Shown here piece after piece: positions 33,466 through 43,786 of a stretch of DNA of 64,000 bases. How positions within the stretch are numbered: the first letter of the stretch is position 1; the number at the start of each line of letters is the position of its first letter. The notes beneath the pieces are model-generated. The model worked only from the letters and a program-made list of their open reading frames with translations, did not search any database and was not told the DNA's origin. The position numbers were made by a program, and so were the translations under genes. Origin of the DNA: Planctomycetota bacterium (GTDB lineage: Bacteria > Planctomycetota > PUPC01 > DSUN01). The stretch covers positions 17,416-81,415 of the forward strand of contig DATKZY010000028.1 in assembly GCA_035527715.1 (NCBI GenBank). Direction: 5' to 3'.

Positions 33466-34150
33466 CACCACGGAGACACGGAGAGCACGGAGAAGACAAG
33501 ATCTCATGCAGAGCCAGCAGAGGCGGCAGGGCTCGCAGTGAAGACTCTCGACCCCGGATCGCACGGATCGGCGCGGATGGCGAAGCCGGGAAGGGGGCGC
33601 AGAAGGGGCAGCGACCGCGGATTACGCGGATGCCGCGGATAGGCAGAAGCGGAGAAGGCATACAGTAGGCAGTCCGCGCTCGTCGTCGTCGTCCTCGTCG
33701 TCGTCGTCGAAACCGCCGCGACCCGACCACGGATCGCACAGATCAGCACGGAAGGCGAAGCCGGGAAGCGGGCACAGAATGGGCAGCGACCGCGGATGAC
33801 GCGGATAGGCAGAAGGGGAGAAGGCATACAGTGGACAGTCCGTGCTCGTCGTCGTCGTCGAGACCGCTGCGATCCAACCCCGGATCGCACGGATCGGCGC
33901 GGAAGGCGAAGCCGGGAAGCGGGCACGAAAAGAAAGGCGACCGCGGATTACGCGGATGACGCGGATAGGCAGAAGGGGAGAAGGCATACAGTGGACAGTC
34001 CGTGCTCGTCGTCGTCGTCGTCCTCGTCGTCGTCGTCGAAACCGCCGCGACCCGACCCCGGATCGCACGGATCAGCACGGACGGCGAAGCCGGGAAGCGG
34101 GGACAGGAGGAAAGGCGACCGCGGATTACGCGGATGACGCGGATGGGAAA
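33466..34150. repeat. Tandem macro-repeat, about 3.5 units of 151-178 bp, built from nested 9-mer arrays plus (CGT)n
   Basis: The unit anchor ggatcgcac(g/a)gatc recurs at 33556, 33731, 33882 and 34060. Each unit contains ggatcgcac-ggatcggcg, cgcggatta-cgcggatga-cgcggatag and ggcatacagtggacagtccgtgctcgtcgtcgtcg... Unit length varies with the CGT tract. Confidence 0.85.
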
Positions 34151-34158
34151 CGCAAGAA

Positions 34159-34224
34159 GGTGTTCGGTGATCGGTGTTCGGGGTCAGGAGCTTGCGGCTT
34201 GTAGCTTGTGGCTTGCGGCTTCTC
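34159..34224. repeat. Heptanucleotide arrays (GTGTTCG-type, then GCTTGNG-type)
   Basis: ggtgttcggtgatcggtgttcgggg, followed by gcttgcg gcttgta gcttgtg gcttgcg gcttctc. Confidence 0.8.
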
Positions 34225-34368: not shown

Positions 34369-36663
34369 TTACAGGGCGGACGCTTCCTTGATCACAGGGT
34401 CGCCGCACGTGCTTGGGGACACCAGAAGCCGACCGGTTCTTGCCATCTGGCTGCGGTCAGGGAGCCAGATGTGTAGGCCGCCTCTTCTGTACTGGGTCGC
34501 CAGACCGTGAGACTGAAGGAGCCTCAAGGCATCGGGAACTAGCTGCCGGCTTCTCTGGTCCAGACCTCTGAAAAGGGCATTCTCCTTTCTGCCCTTGCCG
34601 CGCTGAACATAGAGCTTCTTCAACACCGTGAGTAGCACTCTCAAGCCGAGCGGAAGACCGAGATCGAGGATTGAGCTCGTCGTTTCCACTGACTCCCTGA
34701 ACGCATCAAACACACACTCACTGTCGAAAGCCCCGGCTGGGAGGTCGTCACGGGAGACGCGACCATCCATTTCCGCTATGAAACAGGCGGAGAACTTTGG
34801 TACCCTGCTTCCCTCAACCTGGGGGTCAACATCAAGCCGCATGAAGTAGCAGTCGGTGAAACGAGCGCGGCTGATGTCCCCCGCAGAACCAGAGATCTCC
34901 AGGTCAGGGATCAGGATACCCTGAATCTGCAAAGCACACGGCAGCGAGATGCCCATCGCGGCCACAATACGCACCAGGTCCGCGCGCAGCATGTCGGCGG
35001 CACCAAGCTGGTTCGTTCTCTGGATCGCTGCACCCAACTTCCCCTCTGCGCCGGGAATCCTGCTCAATGCAAGGGCTGCTACCTCTACCCCCAAAGCGCC
35101 CAAAGCGCACTCGGCTTCTTCAAGGAGTCCTGTCTCAGATCCAAAGGGCTGTTCGCAGAAGTACACGAGGTCGCCGGCTCGGCACGTGTCAGCGAAGTCC
35201 TCGTCGATGAAGCTCCTGTTGTCGCCCCCGTCGGGTCCGACACCCAAGCCGGGCAGACGTTGAAGGATAACCATTGCCTGTTCGTCGGGCTTGTACCCGC
35301 ATATCTCCTCGAAAGCCTCTTGGACCTGCTCCGAAGCGACGGGACCGAGGCCGTTCAGTGTGCCCCTCGCCTTCGAAGCGGTTCGTTCAAGGACCCTGCG
35401 TATGGTTTGTCCGTCAATGCCTGCCTCAATCTCTGCTTCTCGGTCGCAGATTCGGCCGATCAGATCATGCCACCCTATGGCTGGGTCTAGGGGCGCGTTC
35501 TCGCGCCCCGACTCAGCGGGTTGGCGCGGGAGAGCGCCTCGTGACACAAGATAGCCGACCAACAGCGGACGGGCTGGCATCCAGCACGGAATGGTGCCAG
35601 CATAGCCACTACTCTTAACGTACTCACGTATCTGGTCCTCCGTGAAATCATTCAGAGTCAGGTCCACAAAGAACCCGTGGGTTCCAAGAGCTGATCTCCT
35701 CTCTCGCTCGTTATCAAAGAAATAGGCGCGCCCTGCCAGCGCGACCCCTACGCTACTCGGAGTATCTCGAACAAATCGCCTCACGACTTCCATCGATCGG
35801 AACCGGTTTTCCCTCAGCCTCTTCCACGGGCCCTGAATAGCAAGGGACGCCACCTCATCAAATCCATCGAGGATAACGATTCCATACCCGGCTCGCCAGG
35901 CGCGGACGAGGTGAGTCGGTTGCGAAAACCCGATGATCTTCGCGTGTCTCTCGAGGACTTCAGTCGGGTCATCCTGGCCGTAGTGATCCCTTAGATTAAT
36001 GTAGATTGGGAATCTGTAGGTGTCACCCTTAAGATGCCGGCGGCGCAATCCGAAGTAGATCTCGCGGAGGGTCATGCTCTTCCCGGCGCCGTAATCACCC
36101 AGCAGCACGATCCTACCACCCTGGTCCAACTGATCTACCATTCTTGAGAAGTCCCAGGTTTCACCTGATGCAGCATCCAGGCAGGCAAGGGGAACATATT
36201 TCGCCCTCGGTTCAGCGGCCCCTGTTCCAGGGTCTCTTACGCTTCCAAACCGATAATTGGAGCGGTCCCTGAGGTACGAGACAACGTCTATGAGCTTGGC
36301 CTTGAACTGGCGATAGGAGACGGCGTTCACGAGCCCAGGGTACTGGTTGGCCACCCTACGTTGGACAGCACTGGGTTCCGACTTCGTCACGAACCAGCAG
36401 AGAACAGCCTTAGCGCGCCCGGACCTCTTCAGTCTCGAGGCGTGGTTCACCATCTTGCCGATGTCCTTCTTAGCTTTGTCCTCCCGACCTGATGTCGTCG
36501 CCTCAACCAGATGAATGCAATCTTCGGTCTCGAACAAACCATCCATTTCCCGCTCCCCAACCATCGTCGCACCCCCGTACTCGGCCGCTGGCCAGAGATG
36601 ACGAGCGATGGAGCGCACTTCGTCTTCAAAGATCTTGTCGTCATCACGGTCGGTTGCTGTCAT
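34369..36663 (-). CDS. STAND/NACHT-type P-loop NTPase with an N-terminal PD-(D/E)xK-like module and an unassigned C-terminal domain (candidate antiphage sensor)
   Basis: 764 aa. Walker A is LLGDYGAGKSMT and Walker B is IVILDGFDEV. The N-terminal segment FEDEVRSIARHL...GEREMDGLFETEDCIHLVEATTSGREDK is Mrr/NERD-like. GC is visibly lower than in the neighbours. Confidence 0.7.
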   Translation of the reverse strand: MTATDRDDDKIFEDEVRSIARHLWPAAEYGGATMVGEREMDGLFETEDCIHLVEATTSGREDKAKKDIGKMVNHASRLKRSGRAKAVLCWFVTKSEPSAVQRRVANQYPGLVNAVSYRQFKAKLIDVVSYLRDRSNYRFGSVRDPGTGAAEPRAKYVPLACLDAASGETWDFSRMVDQLDQGGRIVLLGDYGAGKSMTLREIYFGLRRRHLKGDTYRFPIYINLRDHYGQDDPTEVLERHAKIIGFSQPTHLVRAWRAGYGIVILDGFDEVASLAIQGPWKRLRENRFRSMEVVRRFVRDTPSSVGVALAGRAYFFDNERERRSALGTHGFFVDLTLNDFTEDQIREYVKSSGYAGTIPCWMPARPLLVGYLVSRGALPRQPAESGRENAPLDPAIGWHDLIGRICDREAEIEAGIDGQTIRRVLERTASKARGTLNGLGPVASEQVQEAFEEICGYKPDEQAMVILQRLPGLGVGPDGGDNRSFIDEDFADTCRAGDLVYFCEQPFGSETGLLEEAECALGALGVEVAALALSRIPGAEGKLGAAIQRTNQLGAADMLRADLVRIVAAMGISLPCALQIQGILIPDLEISGSAGDISRARFTDCYFMRLDVDPQVEGSRVPKFSACFIAEMDGRVSRDDLPAGAFDSECVFDAFRESVETTSSILDLGLPLGLRVLLTVLKKLYVQRGKGRKENALFRGLDQRSRQLVPDALRLLQSHGLATQYRRGGLHIWLPDRSQMARTGRLLVSPSTCGDPVIKEASAL

Positions 36664-36745: not shown

Positions 36746-36913
36746 TCAGGGGCTGACGAAGAGGTCGGCAATGGGGCAGCGGAAGCCGGGGAGGAGTTCG
36801 CCACCGTCGAGTTCGGCGCCGACGGGGAGGGTCTCGATGTCGGAGGCCGAGCGGTAGACGGCGTCGGGCATCTCGAGCAACTGCTCGGCAGTGATCAGTG
36901 TGGCCGCGCTCAT
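36746..36913 (-). pseudogene. Uma2 (DUF820) family endonuclease remnant with an in-frame internal deletion
   Basis: MSAATLITAEQLLEMPD is a typical Uma2 N-terminus. It is fused to DIETLPVGAELDGGELLPGFRCPIADLF, a typical Uma2 C-terminus. Only 55 codons remain versus about 190 in intact family members, and the catalytic core is missing. Confidence 0.6.
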
Positions 36914-36967
36914 GGCTTCACCCCCGGGGCGCATGACGGATGGCTCTTGCGACCTCTTCATGACGGC

Positions 36968-36996
36968 ATACTACGCGCCCGAGGCAGGGGAGTCAA
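36968..36996 (-). promoter_or_regulatory. Sigma70-like promoter candidate (Uma2 relic, possibly reading into the NACHT gene)
   Basis: Minus strand reads TTGACT-N17-TAGTAT. I found no convincing promoter between the relic and the NACHT start. Confidence 0.4.
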
Positions 36997-37024
36997 GAGG
37001 CGCGAGGAGAAAGCCGGGTGTTCG

Positions 37025-37123
37025 GTGTTCGGTGTCGGGGGGGCGAAGAGAGGTGTTCGGTGTTCGGTTGTCGGTTGTCGGGGTGAAGAGGCGGAAGAGG
37101 GCATGGGTGGGACGAGTGGGACT
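37025..37123. repeat. Heptanucleotide arrays (GTGTTCG-type, two blocks) followed by a short GGGAC 9-mer array
   Basis: gggtgttcggtgttcggtgtcgggggg; ggtgttcggtgttcggttgtcggttgtcgggg; atgggtggg acgagtggg actgcgggc. Confidence 0.8.
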
Positions 37124-37426: not shown

Positions 37427-37458
37427 GGTGTCAGGTGTCAGGTGTTGGGGGTCAGGGG
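37427..37458. repeat. Heptanucleotide array (GGTGTCA-type) overlapping the 3' end of helicase 1
   Basis: ggtgtca ggtgtca ggtgttg ggggtca gggg. On the minus strand it encodes the last 8 codons (PKPLTPNT) and the stop codon of the helicase. Confidence 0.7.
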
Positions 37459-39807
37459 TTTGGGGCGCGGGACGTAGGGGTCGAGGGCGAGAAGGTCGTG
37501 GAGGATGAGGAGGGCCGCCTCCTTGTCGGGGATGCGGCCGCGGACCGACGAATCGAGGTCGCCCAGGGCGACCGAGGGGACGGCGGCGCCGACGCAACTC
37601 GGGCAGCCGTCGCGACATGCACACTGGCTGACGACGGTGTGGACGGACTTGAGCAGGTCGCCGATGGCCTCGGCGCAGCGTTCGGCGTAGCCCATGCCGC
37701 CGGGGTAGCGGTCGTAGAGGAAGATGGCGTCGCGGCCGAGATTCGTCGCATCTACTGTGGTGCCAATGTCTTGCACGTCGCACATGACGAACATGGGGGC
37801 GACCTCGACCAGGGCGTTGGCGATGCCGATGAGGCCCTCGGCGAAGACGCGCTTCTGCTGCGCGACGACTTCGCGGGCGTGGTCGGACGGCACGAGCCAG
37901 AGGGCAACGGTCTCGAGCTCCTGGGGCGGAAGCTCGAGCTTCTCGAATCCTAAACTATCGCGGGTATTGAACTTAACCTTCTTGAACATCGGGATATGGG
38001 TGGTCACCGTCACGTCGCCGAAGCCGATGGTGCCGCCGGCCCAGGGCTCCTCGCGGTCCTTTTCGTCAATGCGAATCTGCGAGGACTGGATGGACTGGGT
38101 GTAGTAGTCGAGGTCGCGGCGCTCGACGAAGGCGATCTTCTTCTCGAGGTCGAGCTTGTTCACGATGTAAGTGTCGCCGGAATGGAGGTATACGGCGTGG
38201 TCGTGGAGCTGGGCGAGGGCGGAAATCTCGTCCATCGTGCCGATCACCTGGTCGCCCTGCGTGGTGTCCTGGATGGTGTAGACGGGTCCGCAGAGGGTGC
38301 GGAGGTTGACTTGGGCGGCTGGGTAGTCGGAGGTGGCCCAGAACCACTTGTCATCTATACGCTTAGCGACTCCGCCATCGGCGAGGAGCTCGAGGATCGG
38401 CTCGGCGTATTCGCCGAAGCTGGGGGCCTCGGCATCGGGCAGGGGCAATTCGTGGAGGGCGCACTTGAGGTGGCCGACGGCGATGTGGGGGTTGTCGGGG
38501 TCAACGATGGCGCGCTCGGGGGATCGCCCGAAGATGAAGCCCGCGTTGTACATAAGGTATTGGTCAATGGGGGAGTTCTGGGCGATGAGGATGACGAGCG
38601 CGTCGTCGGCGCCGCGGCCGGCTCGGCCCGCCCGCTGCCAGAGGCTGGCGATGGTGCCGGGGTAGCCTACGAGGATGCAGGCGTCGAGCGAGCCGATGTC
38701 AATGCCCAGTTCGAGGGCGTTGGTGGAGGCGATGCCGAGGATTTCGCCCGAGGCCAGGCGGCGCTCGATGTCGCGGCGCTCCTCGGGCAGGTAGCCGCCG
38801 CGATAGCTCTGCACGCGCTGGGCGAGGCGGGGCGAGATGGGCTCGAGGAGGGTGCGAGCGTGCTTGAGTATAAGTTCCGTGCTGAGGCGGGTTTGCGTGA
38901 AAACGATGGTCTGGATTTCGTTGCGGACCAGATTGGTCATCAGCTCGACGGCGGTCCAGAGGGCGCTGCGGCGTTCGCCGCCCACGGCGGGGGCCTCGGT
39001 GGCCGGCAGGTCGCGGCTGAGGAGGGGCGGGTTCCAGAGGAGGAACTTCTTCGGGCCGCGGGGCGAGCCGTCGTTGGTCACCAGCTCGGCCGGGCCGCCG
39101 ATGATCCGCTCGGCGTGTTCCCTGGGATTGGCGATGGTGGCGGAGGAGCAGATGAAGAGCGGATTGCTCCCGAAGTGCCTGCAAATTCGGCGCATGCGGC
39201 GGACAACATTGGCGACGTGCGAGCCGAAGACGCCGCGGTAGGCGTGGACTTCGTCGAGGACGACGAAGCGGAGATTGGTGAAGAAGCGTGCCCAGCGGGC
39301 GTGGTTGGGCAGGATGCCCTGGTGAAGCATGTCGGGGTTCGTGAGGATGACGGCGCCGCGGTCGCGGAGCTTTCGGCGCTGGGGCGCGGGCGTGTCGCCG
39401 TCGTAGGGGCCGCAGGCGAACTGGAGACCCTCCACGCCGGCGGCAAGTTCCGAGAGGCCACGGAACTGATCCTGGGCGAGGGCCTTTGTCGGGTAGATCG
39501 CGATGGCCGTGGCCGTCGTGTCCGCGAGGAGCCTTTCGAGGATCGGCACGTTGTAGCAGAGGGTCTTGCCGCTGGCCGTGCTCGTGACGACGACCACGTT
39601 GCGGCCGCCGCGCACGTAGCGAATGGCCTCGGCCTGATGGGTGTAGAGGCGCTGGATGCCGCGGGCGTCGAGGGCGGCTTTCACGCGCGGCTCGAGGTCG
39701 AGGTCGGCATAGGTCGCCGGCCGCTCGGGCAGCTCTTCGACGTGATGGACCTGCTCGCGTAGCGAGCGGTCGCGGGCGAGACGGCGAAGAAAGGAGTCGA
39801 GGTCCAT
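37438..39807 (-). CDS. DEAD/DEAH-box SF2 helicase with C-terminal 4-Cys DUF1998 domain (MrfA/YprA, SftH-like), paralog 1
   Basis: Motif I TSTASGKT, DEAH-type LDEVH and SAT (CSSATIANP). The C-terminal QCACRDGCPSCV zinc cluster is present. 789 aa. Confidence 0.8.
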   Translation of the reverse strand: MDLDSFLRRLARDRSLREQVHHVEELPERPATYADLDLEPRVKAALDARGIQRLYTHQAEAIRYVRGGRNVVVVTSTASGKTLCYNVPILERLLADTTATAIAIYPTKALAQDQFRGLSELAAGVEGLQFACGPYDGDTPAPQRRKLRDRGAVILTNPDMLHQGILPNHARWARFFTNLRFVVLDEVHAYRGVFGSHVANVVRRMRRICRHFGSNPLFICSSATIANPREHAERIIGGPAELVTNDGSPRGPKKFLLWNPPLLSRDLPATEAPAVGGERRSALWTAVELMTNLVRNEIQTIVFTQTRLSTELILKHARTLLEPISPRLAQRVQSYRGGYLPEERRDIERRLASGEILGIASTNALELGIDIGSLDACILVGYPGTIASLWQRAGRAGRGADDALVILIAQNSPIDQYLMYNAGFIFGRSPERAIVDPDNPHIAVGHLKCALHELPLPDAEAPSFGEYAEPILELLADGGVAKRIDDKWFWATSDYPAAQVNLRTLCGPVYTIQDTTQGDQVIGTMDEISALAQLHDHAVYLHSGDTYIVNKLDLEKKIAFVERRDLDYYTQSIQSSQIRIDEKDREEPWAGGTIGFGDVTVTTHIPMFKKVKFNTRDSLGFEKLELPPQELETVALWLVPSDHAREVVAQQKRVFAEGLIGIANALVEVAPMFVMCDVQDIGTTVDATNLGRDAIFLYDRYPGGMGYAERCAEAIGDLLKSVHTVVSQCACRDGCPSCVGAAVPSVALGDLDSSVRGRIPDKEAALLILHDLLALDPYVPRPKPLTPNT

Positions 39808-39869: not shown

Positions 39870-40733
39870 TCACGGCCGCGTTCCGGCCCCGCCCGACCTG
39901 ACGTGCTCGATGGTCTTGTCGGCCCACTCGTCGCAGAAGGGGTTCTCGCCCTTGTAGCCGAGAAGCAGACACGGGTCTTCGAGCATCCTGTCCCAGAACA
40001 GGCGCATGCACTCACGGCACTTCATGAGGCCGACGTTGGCATCCCCGCTCTTCGTCCACCTTATGAAGCCGGACTCATCGAGGACCTTGGCGGCGCGGGA
40101 GTTATTCCTGTAGAAGTTGCGGTAGCCCTTGGGGCTTTTCGTGACCTCGACCTCGATGGGCTTCCCATCGGGGCCTTTGACCAGCGCGCGGGACACGGCC
40201 ATGTAGGGGAGGGCCATCCAGTCCTCGACGACGTGGAGGGTGGTGTTGGTTCGGTTGGTGGTGCCGAAGAAGCAGATCCAGGCGTCCCACTCGAAGTTCT
40301 TGCCGTAGGGGCTCACGCGGTCGAAGGTGGAGCCCTTCTCGTGGCCGGCCACGTATTCTTCGGCGCGGGCGCCGATCGCGGCGATCGAGTGGGTGGGGTG
40401 CCGCGAGCGTTTGCGCTCGGGCCGCGCGAGGAAGACGTTGGTGACGCTGCCCACGCGCGAAGGCGTGGTGTCGGGGTCGAAGGCGTACGCGACGGGCCCG
40501 TCGGGCTTGGATGGCGCGAACGTAGCGGTGAGGGCCGGGACGGCCGCGAGGCCGTTCGGCCCGACGGTCTCGAGGAAGGCGTCTATGACCATGTCGGCGC
40601 CGCAGTTGGGGAGCTTGACGAGTTCGCGGGCGGGCCTCAGCATGCGGAGGTCGCTGTGGAAGAGGACGGCGTCGCCCTCCCTGAGGCCGAGCTCGGCCAG
40701 CCCGGCCTTGATGTCTTCCTTCGTGATGGCCAT
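39870..40733 (-). CDS. AAC(3) family N-acetyltransferase (aminoglycoside 3-N-acetyltransferase fold)
   Basis: VLFHSDLRML...GADMVIDAFLETVGPNGLAAVPALT, HPTHSIAAIGARAEEY and SPYGKNFEWDAWICFFGTTNRTNTTLHVVE match family hallmarks. The substrate is unknown. Confidence 0.7.
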   Translation of the reverse strand: MAITKEDIKAGLAELGLREGDAVLFHSDLRMLRPARELVKLPNCGADMVIDAFLETVGPNGLAAVPALTATFAPSKPDGPVAYAFDPDTTPSRVGSVTNVFLARPERKRSRHPTHSIAAIGARAEEYVAGHEKGSTFDRVSPYGKNFEWDAWICFFGTTNRTNTTLHVVEDWMALPYMAVSRALVKGPDGKPIEVEVTKSPKGYRNFYRNNSRAAKVLDESGFIRWTKSGDANVGLMKCRECMRLFWDRMLEDPCLLLGYKGENPFCDEWADKTIEHVRSGGAGTRP

Positions 40734-40942: not shown

Positions 40943-43786
40943 CTACCGCCATTCCTTGGGCGCACGCTTGCGCTTGCGGGCGAGTGCGGCGAGGGGGTCG
41001 CCGGCTTTGATGGGGGCGGGAGTGGGACCCATGGGACCAAGGGGAACTATGGGACCGGCAGGAGCTTGCGGCGGCGCGGGACGGAAGGCGGGGGGAACAT
41101 TGGGCTCGGGGGTGGCGGGGCCGGGCTTGCGCTCGCCGCGGGCGATGGCCTTGTCGTGGCGAAGCTTGCGGAAGACGCGACGGGCGACGTCGGCGTTGGT
41201 GAGTTTCGAGCGCTGCTCGGGCTGCGGAAAGGCCGTGTGGATGTCGTGCTCGATGGGATGGACGGGATGGGGCAGGAGCGGCTCCCTGGCGTGCTCGAGG
41301 CGGCGACGCAGGCTGCGCTCCAGGGCGAGGCGGGCCTCAGGGGCCGTCTGGCCGAGGCTCACCGTGTCGGGCTCGTCGAGGCGCGAGCCGTCGTCGAGGA
41401 GGCGTTCGAGCATGAAGAGGGTGGCGCGCTTCGAGGGGATCGAGCCTTCGCCGCGCTCGACGTTCCAGGTGACGTCCTGGCGGAGGGGTTTGCCGACGCA
41501 GCAGGGGCAGCCGTCGTCGCAGTCGCACTTGCGAATGTGGTCGAGGACGGCGGGCATCAGGCGGCTGGCCAATTCGTAGGCGCGCTCGGTGAAGCCGAGG
41601 CCGAGGGGGTAGCGTTCGTAGACGAATGTGGTGTTCCACGGGGCGTTGACGGCGCCGACGGTGTGCGAGAAGTCGAGGGTCTCGCAACGGACGAAGAGAG
41701 GGAGGACCTGTCGCGTGGCGTAGCCGATGCCGCGGCAACCGGCGTGGGGATCAATGTCCAGCGCGAGCGCACGGCGGCACAGCTCCTCGGGCGGGACGAG
41801 CCAGAAGGCGTGGGTCTCGAAGACGAAGGTCGGCAAGTCGAGCGGATGGCGCGAGAGGGCGTCGAGGGTGTAGAAGTGGATCCGCTCGTAGGCCCAGGTG
41901 TGGAAATGCGTGGTGACCTCGCCGAAGCAGAGGGTGCCGATGCCGAAGGGCCGCTCGCGCAGGCGGGCGTCAATGTGGTGGACGTCCGTGCCGCCGAGGG
42001 GCTGGGTGTAGTAATCCACGTCCACCTTGCGTACGCGGGCGAAGGAGTGCTCGAGGTCGAGCTGCTCGACGAACCACGTGTCGCCCTGATGGAGGTAGAT
42101 GGCCTCGGGGTGGACGTAGATGGGGGCGTCGAGCTTGGGCATTTCGCCGATGATCTGCTCGGTCGCGGCATCCACCACGACCACGTTCCGGTCGTCCATC
42201 GCGCGGAGCGAGACCTCGTGCTGCGGCGTCTCGGGCGCGCTGTGGTGCCAGGAGCGATGCTCGGTGTCGTGGTAGACCTTCTGCTGGCCTTCGAGGACTT
42301 CGAGGGCGATGGGCGCGGCGGGACCGAAACGCGGCACCTCGTCGTCGGGCAGCGGCAGCTCGTGGGTCGCGCAGCGCAGGTGGCTGACGACGATGTGCGG
42401 GTTGTCGGGCTCCAGCACGCCCTCCTCGATGGGCCGGCCGAACAGGTAGTCGGGGTGCCGCATGACGTATTGGTTGATGGCCGTGTCGAGTCCCACGAGG
42501 ATCACGAGGGCCGCCTTGTCGCGTCGGCCCGCGCGGCCGGCCTGCTGGAAGAAGGAGGCGAGGGTGCCGGGGTAGCCGACGATGAGGCTGGCCTCGAGGG
42601 AGCCGACGTCAATGCCAAGTTCGAGGGCGCGGGTGGAGCTGACGCCGAGCAATTCGCCGCTGAACAGCTTGTGCTCGATCTCGCGACGTTCGGTGGGCAG
42701 GTAGCCGGCGCGGTAGGGCGTCACCTTGTCGGCGAGCGGCGAGGCGAGGCGTTCGAGCGATTCGCGGACGTAGCGGTAGATCAGCTCCGCCGTGACCTTG
42801 GCCTTCGAGAAGGCGATGGTGGGCGTGCCCGCTAGGACGAGCGCGGTCATCAGCTCCTGCGCCTCGACGTTGGCCGAGCGCCGCGAGCGCCACTGCGTCG
42901 AGCGGATGCGAGGGGGATTCCAAAGGACGTAGGTGCGGGGGCCGGAGGGGGAGCCGTCGGTGGAGATGAGGGCGATGGGACGAATGGGACTTATGGGACC
43001 TATGGGACCCGTGGCACCTACCGGTCCCATCGGTCTGATGGGTCCCATACGTCCCATCAGCTTGGCGGCCACTTCGAGGGGATTGGCCAGCGTGGCCGAG
43101 CAGGCCAGAAATTGCGGCTTCGAGCCATAGTGGGCGCACACGCGGTCGAGCCGGCGGAAGAGATTCGCCACGTTGGCCCCGAAGAGGCCCGTGTACGTGT
43201 GCAGCTCATCCACGACGATATGGGTGAGGCGGGCGAACACACTCGCCCAGCGGGGATGCTGCGGCAGGATGCCGGCGTGGAGCATATCGGGGTTGGTGAT
43301 GATCACGGCCGCCTTGTCGCGAAGCTGGCGGCGGTGACTTGCCGGCGTATCGCCGTCAATCACCCCGACCGTAACCTCCCGCGGGTTCGCAACCCGCGGG
43401 AGGTTTGCGGCTTGAAGGGCGCGCTGGAACACGCGGAGCTGGTCTTGCGACAGCGCCTTCGTGGGATAGAGGGCGAGGATGCGGGCGGTGGGGTCGCGCT
43501 CCAGTTGCTCAATGATGGGGAGCAGATAGCAGAGCGTCTTGCCGCTGGCCGTCGAGGTCGTTACCAGGAAGTCGCGGCCCGCGCGCGCGAGGTCGAGTGC
43601 CTGGGCCTGGTGGAGATAGAGCTGTTCGATGCCCATCCCCGCGAGCATTCGCGCGCAGGCCGGCGACAGCGGCTCCCGCGGCGCCGCATACCGCGCTGCC
43701 CGCCCCGCGACGCGGTGCACGTGGACGATCTGGCCGCGATAGTCGGCCGAGGCACGCAGATGCTCGAGGAAGGAATCGAAGTCCAC
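40943..43786 (-). CDS. DEAD/DEAH-box SF2 helicase with C-terminal 4-Cys DUF1998 domain (MrfA/SftH-like), paralog 2, carrying repeat-derived insertions
   Basis: GTG start. Motifs are TSTASGKT, VDELH, CSATLANP and KCDCDDGCPCCV. It is 947 aa. The extra length comes from a Gly-Pro insertion encoded by the 42974-43058 array and from a Pro-rich C-terminal tail containing the 41019-41057 array. Confidence 0.8.
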   Translation of the reverse strand: MDFDSFLEHLRASADYRGQIVHVHRVAGRAARYAAPREPLSPACARMLAGMGIEQLYLHQAQALDLARAGRDFLVTTSTASGKTLCYLLPIIEQLERDPTARILALYPTKALSQDQLRVFQRALQAANLPRVANPREVTVGVIDGDTPASHRRQLRDKAAVIITNPDMLHAGILPQHPRWASVFARLTHIVVDELHTYTGLFGANVANLFRRLDRVCAHYGSKPQFLACSATLANPLEVAAKLMGRMGPIRPMGPVGATGPIGPISPIRPIALISTDGSPSGPRTYVLWNPPRIRSTQWRSRRSANVEAQELMTALVLAGTPTIAFSKAKVTAELIYRYVRESLERLASPLADKVTPYRAGYLPTERREIEHKLFSGELLGVSSTRALELGIDVGSLEASLIVGYPGTLASFFQQAGRAGRRDKAALVILVGLDTAINQYVMRHPDYLFGRPIEEGVLEPDNPHIVVSHLRCATHELPLPDDEVPRFGPAAPIALEVLEGQQKVYHDTEHRSWHHSAPETPQHEVSLRAMDDRNVVVVDAATEQIIGEMPKLDAPIYVHPEAIYLHQGDTWFVEQLDLEHSFARVRKVDVDYYTQPLGGTDVHHIDARLRERPFGIGTLCFGEVTTHFHTWAYERIHFYTLDALSRHPLDLPTFVFETHAFWLVPPEELCRRALALDIDPHAGCRGIGYATRQVLPLFVRCETLDFSHTVGAVNAPWNTTFVYERYPLGLGFTERAYELASRLMPAVLDHIRKCDCDDGCPCCVGKPLRQDVTWNVERGEGSIPSKRATLFMLERLLDDGSRLDEPDTVSLGQTAPEARLALERSLRRRLEHAREPLLPHPVHPIEHDIHTAFPQPEQRSKLTNADVARRVFRKLRHDKAIARGERKPGPATPEPNVPPAFRPAPPQAPAGPIVPLGPMGPTPAPIKAGDPLAALARKRKRAPKEWR
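41019..41057. repeat. GGGAC 9-mer array inside the helicase 2 C-terminal tail
   Basis: gagtgggac ccatgggac caaggggaa ctatgggac. It encodes PIVPLGPMGPTP on the minus strand. Confidence 0.75.
42974..43058. repeat. Palindromic GGGAC/GTCCC 9-mer array inserted in frame in helicase 2
   Basis: atgggacga atgggactt atgggacct atgggaccc gtggcacct | accggtccc atcggtctg atgggtccc atacgtccc. It encodes RMGPIRPMGPVGATGPIGPISPIRPI, and paralog 1 has only GPAE at the same position. Confidence 0.85.

Follow-up and report, generated by a model that had tools for sequence, protein, structure and literature searches.

A stretch of 64,000 nucleotides from a Planctomycetota bacterium (assembly GCA_035527715.1, contig DATKZY010000028.1, positions 17,416 to 81,415), referred to here as the window, carries on its minus strand a gene (34369..36663, stop codon at 34369-34371) encoding a 764-aa protein. 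The protein consists of an N-terminal restriction-endonuclease (REase)-fold domain, a central NACHT module and a short C-terminal region. With a probability of about 70%, it is a single-protein NLR-like (bacterial NACHT) anti-phage sensor whose nuclease would be activated by ATP-dependent oligomerisation, probably leading to abortive infection or DNA degradation. The analysis established how the domains are arranged, which folds the N- and C-terminal parts have and how conservation is spread along the protein, and further that the gene lacks a partner and that the family has a patchy, mobile and defence-associated distribution. All features of the gene and its surroundings given below lie on the minus strand unless stated otherwise.

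The window has a GC content of about 70%, and its six-frame listing of open reading frames (ORFs) is rich in long spurious ORFs. Despite this, ORF 34369-36663 is a real gene, because it has many database relatives and the full-length entries among them align end to end. A word-indexed database search found 928 relatives of the 764-aa protein at E≤1e-3. The best 120 of these 928 are nearly all about 730–815 aa long, with about 50% identity and 96–100% query coverage, and nearly all of them carry PF05729. An exhaustive HMMER scan of 1.84 billion cluster representatives (clusters at 50% identity) yielded 1083, 794 and 501 proteins at E≤1e-3, 1e-10 and 1e-30, respectively. Since the full-length entries (750–770 aa) among the best 150 HMMER matches align end to end, the remainder being shorter, partial sequences, the family architecture appears fixed. 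The start codon agrees with the N-termini of homologs, and GGGAG is located 8 nt upstream. The identical protein was found on five contigs of one ENA metagenome project, each with the same neighbourhood. An earlier note, made from the DNA letters alone, had quoted four motif strings, and every one of them is present in the translation: FEDEVRSIARHL (aa 12-23), GEREMDGLFETEDCIHLVEATTSGREDK (aa 36-63), the Walker A string LLGDYGAGKSMT (aa 187-198) and the Walker B string IVILDGFDEV (aa 262-271).

The sequence places the protein in the NACHT clade of STAND P-loop NTPases, in agreement with the earlier note. The PF05729 NACHT profile matches aa 185-280 (profile positions 3-100 of 167) with 34.0 bits, above the gathering cutoff of 26.7 (E 3.3e-8). 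Together with the hhalign alignment described below, this match assigns the nucleotide-binding domain to aa 179-335 (35659..36129). Read from the sequence, Walker A, which follows the pattern GxxxxGK[ST], is GDYGAGKS (aa 189-196, 36076..36099) and Walker B is IVILDGFDE (aa 262-270, 35854..35880), the latter carrying the NACHT signature, which has been defined as D[GAS]hDE (Kibby et al. preprint). Residues G189, G192, G194, K195 and S196 of Walker A and D266-G-F-D269-E270 of Walker B are invariant in 34 close homologs and in a diverse set of 12 sequences reaching down to 26% identity. Arg312, at the position expected for the sensor-1 arginine, is invariant in the same two sets and is a putative sensor-1 residue.

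The end of the NACHT module appears to lie near aa 500. In the hhalign comparison, aa 179-521 aligned with the NACHT module of the known defence protein bNACHT25 up to its FLHRSFMEYF winged-helix motif (301 columns, E 1.9e-4, probability 47.5%), and on this basis aa 336-500 (35164..35658) are taken as the putative helical domain and winged-helix domain of the module. This region is highly conserved and contains the motifs REAEIEAGIDG (408-418), RLPGLG (469-474) and RxFIDExFAD (483-492). In this comparison, no residue of the family aligns with the usual winged-helix His; the residue preceding R483 is T, S or N in homologs and N482 in the window protein. The earlier note had described about 380 unassignable C-terminal residues. 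Because the NACHT module apparently ends near aa 500, about 230 of these residues probably belong to it, and the true tail is about 265 aa and partly assignable, so that the stated size does not hold. The other part of the statement stands: the C-terminal region matches no family, housekeeping or other, in Pfam, NCBIfam or PADLOC. Against PDB sequences, both the protein and the family profile gave P-loop-level noise alone.

The N-terminal domain (aa 1-125, 36289..36663) is the predicted effector. Two domain-level structure models were made, one for aa 1-170 and one for aa 500-764. With 111 homologs as input, AlphaFold2 gave a model of aa 1-170 with a mean predicted local distance difference test (pLDDT) score of 88.4, and the core of this model shows an alpha-beta-beta-beta-alpha-beta order (H3-23, E31-35, E38-45, E49-56, H61-80, E86-93). 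All significant PDB matches of this model in Foldseek are PD-(D/E)xK nucleases, and the top ones have probabilities of 0.97–1.0. The best match is the FokI-like cleavage domain of the nickase Nt.BspD6I (E 4e-4, probability 1.0), followed by the CRISPR- and CBASS-type effectors Cdn1, Can2 and Card1 and then by MspJI, NucS, AF1548 and R2 endonuclease. The matches are remote, with sequence identities of 13–22%, TM scores of about 0.4–0.5 and E-values of about 1e-3. At the fold level, the model and its matches thus confirm a restriction-endonuclease PD-(D/E)xK fold, which the earlier note had suspected from the motif pattern. A helix and a low-confidence linker (aa 126-178, 36130..36288, pLDDT 69–80) connect this domain to the NACHT module, and the entropy of the linker at aa 161-180 is 2.6.

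The predicted catalytic centre, identified by alignment, spans aa 39-70 (36454..36549) and comprises E39, D41, E54-A-T56, S58, K63, D67 and K70. In the model, D41 lies on strand 2 (38-45), E54 on strand 3 (49-56) and E13 on helix 1. This stretch has the lowest entropy of the N-terminal domain. Residues E13, D41, E54, T56, K63, D67 and K70 are invariant both in the 34-sequence alignment and in the 12-sequence set, which includes a phage-borne copy and a plasmid relative of 26% identity. In a 112-sequence alignment, four of these residues (D41, E54, T56 and K70) show no variation, and at least 90% of the sequences keep K63 and D67. The earlier note had read Thr at the position of the canonical (D/E)xK Lys, which is correct. 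Since T56 is invariant in the family, the change from Lys to Thr is a conserved family signature and not a sign of decay. K63 or K70, both on the following helix of the model, might substitute for the canonical Lys. Active enzymes without this Lys exist, such as BglII, which has Gln, and BamHI, which has Glu.

The N-terminal domain shares the alpha-beta-beta-beta-alpha-beta core and the acidic residues on strands 2 and 3 with the FokI/Nt.BspD6I-type domains, Can2, Card1, Cdn1, NucS and Hjc. Can2, Card1 and Cdn1 are ligand-activated defence effectors, and FokI-type cleavage domains cut only when they are brought together. In contrast to FokI and other minimal PD-(D/E)xK nucleases, the window family has Thr in place of the (D/E)xK Lys and matches no Pfam nuclease family; a Pfam search with the isolated N-terminal part gave no match at all, including to Mrr_cat.

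The model of aa 500-764 has a pLDDT of 91.2 and shows three parts. The first is a three-helix bundle (aa ~522-571) within a variable segment (aa 501-575, 34939..35163), which the model and the entropy profile mark as the candidate ligand-sensing surface. The second consists of paired beta strands (aa ~578-657) that form four units of about 22 residues of the h-x-F-x-x-C-x-F type (aa 576-660, 34684..34938). The autocorrelation of the profile has peaks at shifts of 22 (0.05) and 44 (-0.23) over a background near -1.1. The 22-residue periodicity is therefore real, and the segment is called solenoid-like. Its repeats, which carry the conserved Cys605, Cys627 and Cys650, resemble a pentapeptide-like solenoid in the model; no pentapeptide-repeat match was found for aa 576-660 in Pfam (E≤1) or among the top 50 Foldseek matches. 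The third part is a predicted winged helix-turn-helix (HTH) with two trailing helices (model aa ~672-764; segment aa 661-764, 34372..34683).

In Foldseek searches of this model against PDB and viral structures, only the last part was matched, and nearly all matches are winged-helix or HTH proteins (ArsR, SqrR, TubR, PaaX, MarR and viral HTH proteins; E 1e-2 to 1e-1, probability up to 1.0, about 65–110 residues). The few exceptions include an N-methyltransferase and SV2A. Against viral structures, generic HTH proteins alone were matched and no mimicry of phage proteins was seen. The region after the NTPase, about 265 aa, has no match to TPR, LRR or WD40 repeats. The winged helix carries the motif LKKLY-x-Q-x-GSGRKENAL-x-RGLD, and 20 positions of aa 661-764 are invariant. 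The predicted catalytic centre, the NACHT motifs and the C-terminal winged helix are strongly conserved, and the most variable part of the protein is aa 501-600, which covers the bundle and the first beta coils (entropy 2.1–2.3). Within the helical bundle segment the entropy is 2.14, and only 2 of 75 positions are invariant. Such a pattern would be expected if a variable surface meets a fast-evolving ligand.

The family is sparse and patchy in its spread. When grouped at 50% identity, it amounts to about 500 clusters. Across 185,579 species, each represented by one genome, a pattern scan found 68 loci, with identities of 35–55%, in at least ten phyla. The taxa include Acidobacteriota, Alpha-, Beta- and Gammaproteobacteria, Actinomycetota, Planctomycetota, Verrucomicrobiota, Spirochaetia, Nitrospira, Myxococcota and Thermodesulfobacteriota. 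Many of the actinomycetotal loci are from Streptomyces and Kitasatospora, S. venezuelae ATCC 10712 strain L12 being one of them. Mobile elements also carry the gene. The temperate Pseudomonas phage Haddon (PQ571161.1) encodes a full-length member, CDS0030 (XKQ96211.1, L081 7019-9319), which is annotated as a hypothetical protein. It has 36% identity to the window protein and keeps all catalytic and Walker residues, and its gene is an accessory gene located between the excisionase/methyltransferase region and the lysis/tail genes. A literature search on this phage found nothing. A distant relative of 26% identity is encoded on the Erwinia persicina plasmid NZ_CP146502.1, followed by an integrase gene and a Phd/RelE pair. 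On this plasmid (L082, 4601-5176 and 5980-8217), the relative is directly downstream of an annotated pentapeptide-repeat gene, a curious arrangement given the 22-residue solenoid-like repeats of the family.

To compare the neighbourhoods of the homologs, 818 ORFs that flank the gene at 68 loci (64 of the pattern scan, three contig look-ups and the window) were clustered. No neighbour family is common to more than 5 of the 68 loci, so the gene has no conserved partner, and a multi-gene system was rejected on this result. Defence or toxin-antitoxin genes recur near the homologs. Among the 12 loci with precomputed annotation, 8 have such genes within about three genes of the homolog. These neighbours are a type I restriction-modification (R-M) system, a Schlafen-like gene and integrases at one locus; PIN and R-M genes at another; Mrr_N, HNH, an MmeI-like methyltransferase and a DEAD/MZB helicase at L077; BrnA and MazE-PIN; Abi_C and HicB; and an OLD-like AAA_15/DUF4435 ATPase. 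At the metagenomic locus L083 (5584-16058), the homolog is inserted between the HsdR-like and HsdM genes of a type I R-M cluster; Fic, GmrSD_N and TIR_2 genes belong to the same cluster, which makes up a dense defence island. At L079 (1-7924), a NERD and protein-kinase gene, a MAD7 gene of the MADS system and a gene for an 1846-aa protein lie upstream of the homolog.

The 238 nearest ORFs of 65 further loci, which include spurious ORFs from high-GC genomes, were pooled. Strong Pfam or PADLOC matches among them are type I and II R-M, NERD+UvrD, Cas1e, Cas2, PD-Lambda-5_B, MzaA, GajA (E 1.5e-207) with GajB of the Gabija system, mad3 (twice), a DpnI-like enzyme and RmrA. Integrases and transposases also occur among the neighbours of homologs. 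With recurrent defence neighbours, a patchy spread and copies on mobile elements, the family counts as defence-island-associated.

Among known systems, bNACHT25 and bNACHT32 (NACHT clade 6) have the most similar design. They consist of PD-(D/E)xK, NACHT and NCH1 domains, their defence is abolished by D48A and they sense via DnaJ (Kibby et al. 2023; PMC12169576). More broadly, bacterial NACHT proteins can carry N-terminal DNase effectors with a restriction-endonuclease fold, and some clades have short non-repeat C-terminal sensors (Kibby et al. preprint). The bNACHT25 protein (WP_001702659.1), recovered from an E. coli genome through a 399-nt fragment, has 752 aa versus 764 aa in the window protein, and its gene sits in a Rac-like prophage. 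Both are single-gene proteins with an N-terminal PD-(D/E)xK fold, a central NACHT and a short non-repeat C-terminus. However, their homology is detectable in the NACHT module alone: the BLASTP alignment is confined to 108 aa near the Walker motifs, with 24% identity, and domain-restricted hhalign against bNACHT25/32 gives a probability of 0.1% for the N-terminal and the C-terminal domains alike. bNACHT25 matches NCH1 (PF22728) with 132 bits and, weakly, Mrr_cat, whereas the window protein matches neither (Pfam, E≤1) and has a helical bundle, 22-residue beta repeats and a winged helix instead of NCH1. Therefore, the window family follows the same design as bNACHT25 with different effector and sensor families, and the idea that it is simply bNACHT25-like was rejected, as BLASTP, hhalign and Pfam find no common N- or C-terminal domains.

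Other bacterial STAND proteins are more distant in design. In bNACHT11, a phage protein binds the short C-terminal domain, which leads to an ATP-dependent heptamer and to clustering of the effectors (bioRxiv 10.1101/2024.12.17.629029). Proteins of the bNACHT11/bNACHT01 type (clade 14, SNaCT sensors) share with the window protein a NACHT followed by a short (<300 aa) non-repeat C-terminal sensor, but they have no recognisable enzymatic effector, whereas the window family has a nuclease-fold domain of 125 aa. Avs proteins (Avs3/Avs4; Gao et al. 2022; PMC13581612) are likewise STAND NTPases encoded by one gene, in which a nuclease effector at the N-terminus is combined with a sensor at the C-terminus, and they show ligand-driven oligomerisation and defence-island association (PMC13581612). 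In contrast to the tail of about 265 aa in the window protein, which is not TPR-like, Avs sensors have at least 400 aa and are mostly TPR-like, wrapping phage proteins; the window NTPase also belongs to the NACHT clade and matches no PADLOC Avs model. A 2026 survey (Lee et al., PMC13581612) describes 589 STAND clades with sensor clustering restricted to sensors of at least 400 aa; the 265-aa tail therefore falls outside its catalogue.

The architecture and the context both support the assignment made in the earlier note, a defence gene of the NACHT/Avs-type class, and from these two we infer the function. A NACHT profile was found, the C-terminal region matches no housekeeping family, and homologs are often located in defence or mobile contexts; the survey of homolog neighbourhoods, with defence or toxin-antitoxin genes at 8 of 12 annotated loci and R-M, Gabija, MADS and Cas1/Cas2 genes in the pooled set, points the same way. 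The further suggestion of a possible undescribed variant is only partly borne out. The effector and sensor modules indeed belong to no Pfam, NCBIfam or PADLOC family, and the family is new, but the class as a whole, which combines an effector of restriction-endonuclease fold with a NACHT and a short C-terminal sensor, has been described before and, with bNACHT25/32, partly tested.

By analogy with bNACHT25/32, bNACHT11 and Avs proteins, we infer ligand-triggered ATP-dependent oligomerisation, nuclease activation by clustering and an anti-phage phenotype. In the resting state, the protein would be a closed monomer. A phage-derived ligand would bind the C-terminal module, most likely at the hypervariable helical bundle and the first beta coils, and the NACHT module would then bind ATP and oligomerise. 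The oligomer would cluster the N-terminal restriction-endonuclease-fold domains, which would be inactive alone like FokI-type cleavage domains. Once clustered, the domains would cut DNA, by which phage replication would be stopped and the cell possibly killed. Two features not yet described for bacterial NLR-like proteins can be imagined within this scheme, and this reading is rated as unlikely. The E-x-T nuclease centre might become complete only in the oligomer, where K63 or K70 of a neighbouring protomer, for instance, could supply the missing part, so that a safety catch would be built into the active site. The winged helix following the small Cys-bearing beta-solenoid could recognise nucleic acid, either phage DNA or a structure in phage DNA, rather than a phage protein.

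Several points weigh against the reading as an anti-phage sensor. Literature searches found no description or experimental test of any family member. NCBIfam gives no match to the window protein, and no Avs or NLR-type model of PADLOC v2.0.0 matches it, the best E-values (0.025–0.03) belonging to unrelated models. The canonical (D/E)xK Lys position is Thr56 in every sequence examined, so the nuclease activity is not assured. The assignment of aa 336-500 to helical and winged-helix domains is provisional, resting on the hhalign match of 47.5% probability, and a regulator that binds DNA could equally have the conserved winged helix seen at the C-terminus. Four of the 12 annotated loci have little or no defence context (three weak, one purely housekeeping), and many of the pooled neighbours are housekeeping genes. 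The defence proximity in the pooled set, which has no matched control, is a qualitative support and not a statistic. In the neighbourhood of the window gene itself, the defence-type neighbours are just a PhdYeFM antitoxin gene and two MrfA-like helicases, whose role is uncertain.

Other explanations were considered. The protein may work by the same mechanism for the benefit of a mobile element, as a weapon that excludes competing prophages, plasmids or satellites or that stabilises its own element. The copy in the accessory region of phage Haddon near excisionase and methyltransferase genes, the Erwinia plasmid relative beside an integrase and a Phd/RelE pair, the integrases and transposases near other homologs and the position of the window copy in a low-GC islet bracketed by direct repeats are consistent with such a role. 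Many chromosomal copies, however, have no recognisable mobile-element genes within 8–10 kb, and this explanation overlaps the anti-phage reading more than it competes with it, because defence genes of prophages usually protect the host too; on its own it is considered unlikely. A quite unlikely alternative is a STAND transcription factor resembling MalT, AfsR or GutR, in which the winged helix would bind promoter DNA after ligand- and ATP-driven oligomerisation and the N-terminal domain would be a non-catalytic DNA- or ligand-binding module. These regulators combine a STAND NTPase with a (winged) HTH domain, and the last ~90 aa of the window protein match DNA-binding winged helices of the ArsR/SmtB/MarR/PaaX type and are strongly conserved, although the Foldseek E-values reach only 1e-2 to 1e-1. 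The canonical nuclease Lys is missing, and non-immune STAND regulators exist interspersed with defence clades (PMC13581612). On the other hand, MalT, AfsR and GutR have large TPR-like sensors and adjoining regulons and lack a nuclease domain, whereas the window family has a nuclease-fold N-terminus, no conserved neighbouring operon to regulate and a mobile, defence-linked distribution. A patchy spread over many phyla and a phage-borne copy are atypical of a dedicated regulator, defence and toxin-antitoxin genes recur near the homologs, and the acidic residues of the nuclease centre and its two lysines are invariant, which would be expected for catalysis.

The same invariance bears on a further alternative, rated as very unlikely, in which the protein is a defence NLR but its N-terminal domain is an inactive module for binding or sensing nucleic acid and the output is supplied by a different part of the protein or by a host factor that it recruits. 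T56 replaces Lys in all members and the Foldseek matches are remote, as such a module might show, but E13, D41 and E54 and the lysines K63 and K70 of the adjacent helix are invariant, and BglII and BamHI are active with Gln and Glu at this position. Effectors can be short and cryptic, as bNACHT11 shows (bioRxiv 10.1101/2024.12.17.629029); in the window protein, no second domain qualifies as an effector, and the gene lacks a conserved partner. The last alternative is a housekeeping or DNA-repair factor that works with the neighbouring MrfA-like DEAD/MZB helicases. Two genes with DEAD, Helicase_C, WHD_HRQ1 and MZB domains are directly upstream on the same strand, and one other homolog locus, L077, also has a nearby DEAD/MZB gene. 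However, the L077 gene belongs to a DISARM-like methyltransferase cluster, which is itself a defence system, and in the window the GC content of the NACHT gene differs from that of the helicase genes, with repeats and a promoter-like site separating them. Given that the association is not conserved across the 68 loci, a functional link to these helicases was rejected as largely refuted, and a repair role has hardly any probability left.

The anti-phage reading gives the family a wider interest. The innate immune receptors of animals and plants have their prokaryotic counterparts in bacterial NLR-related proteins, of which, to our knowledge, only a handful have been studied so far, nearly all of them enterobacterial; the family adds a widespread environmental lineage. 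Because neither Pfam nor NCBIfam nor PADLOC contains a profile for the effector and sensor modules, current defence-annotation tools miss the family, and a family profile in the defence databases would be an immediate practical gain. Culturable copies exist in Haddon, a temperate phage of Pseudomonas aeruginosa PA14, and in Streptomyces and Kitasatospora strains. Two distinctive features lend themselves to mutation, namely the E-x-T nuclease centre, which is invariant, and the winged helix conserved at the C-terminus; the 22-residue repeats with their Cys residues are a further feature of interest. The conceptual gain would be modest unless the unusual active site or the winged helix works in a new way.

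In the window, the NACHT gene lies in a GC trough of 0.59–0.61, versus about 0.70 around it, and this segment looks like an inserted cassette. Direct copies of a G/T-rich repeat of about 32 nt with a 7-nt sub-period (GGTGTTCGGTGTTCGGTG...GGGG; repeat search, family D3) bracket the low-GC segment on the plus strand, one downstream of the gene (34159..34190) and two upstream (37017-37048 and 37059-37090, together 37017..37090), with a weaker copy at 37427-37458. Within the 64 kb, the motif occurs solely around the NACHT gene (4 matches versus 0.01 expected), and it is absent from 79 other loci. The repeat is thus local to this locus, and a general genomic repeat was rejected. The copies may be boundaries of a cassette or insertion. 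On the 3' side of the gene, the intergenic space up to a hydrolase gene is taken up by a 178-bp tandem repeat (33549-34144; 3.6 copies with 80% matches), in which (TCG)n runs are embedded.

Upstream of the NACHT gene, a sigma-70-like promoter match (36968..36996, TTGACT-17-TAGTAT, 9 of 12 matches) precedes a small ORF of 71 aa (36746..36961), which is called as a 62-aa gene on the source contigs. Two sigma-70-like sites were found where 0.8 are expected by chance, which is weak evidence for a promoter. The small ORF has no Pfam or PADLOC match and is not conserved beside homologs. Its C-terminal tail (…GGELLPGFRCPIADLF) presumably resembles the end of Uma2/DUF820 endonucleases, and the ORF may be a gene remnant.

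Among the homolog loci described above, the 1846-aa protein at L079 has no significant Pfam match, and the NERD-kinase, MAD7 and 1846-aa genes there may represent an incompletely described MADS-type system.

Further upstream in the window are the two paralogous MrfA-like helicase genes (37438-39807 and 40943-43786), assigned by their DEAD, Helicase_C, WHD_HRQ1 and MZB/DUF1998 Pfam domains, with a gene of the aminoglycoside 3-N-acetyltransferase family between them (39870-40733). In PADLOC, the helicases give matches at the level of the helicase core alone (BrxHI, SngC, DruE, DrmA), and the 947-aa copy contains Gly-Pro-rich repeats such as MGPIRPMGPVGATGPIGPISPIRP. Beyond the second helicase on the same contig (L001 1881-2772) are a DUF4926 gene and the PhdYeFM antitoxin gene, which together with a small upstream ORF probably forms a toxin-antitoxin pair about 7 kb from the NACHT gene.

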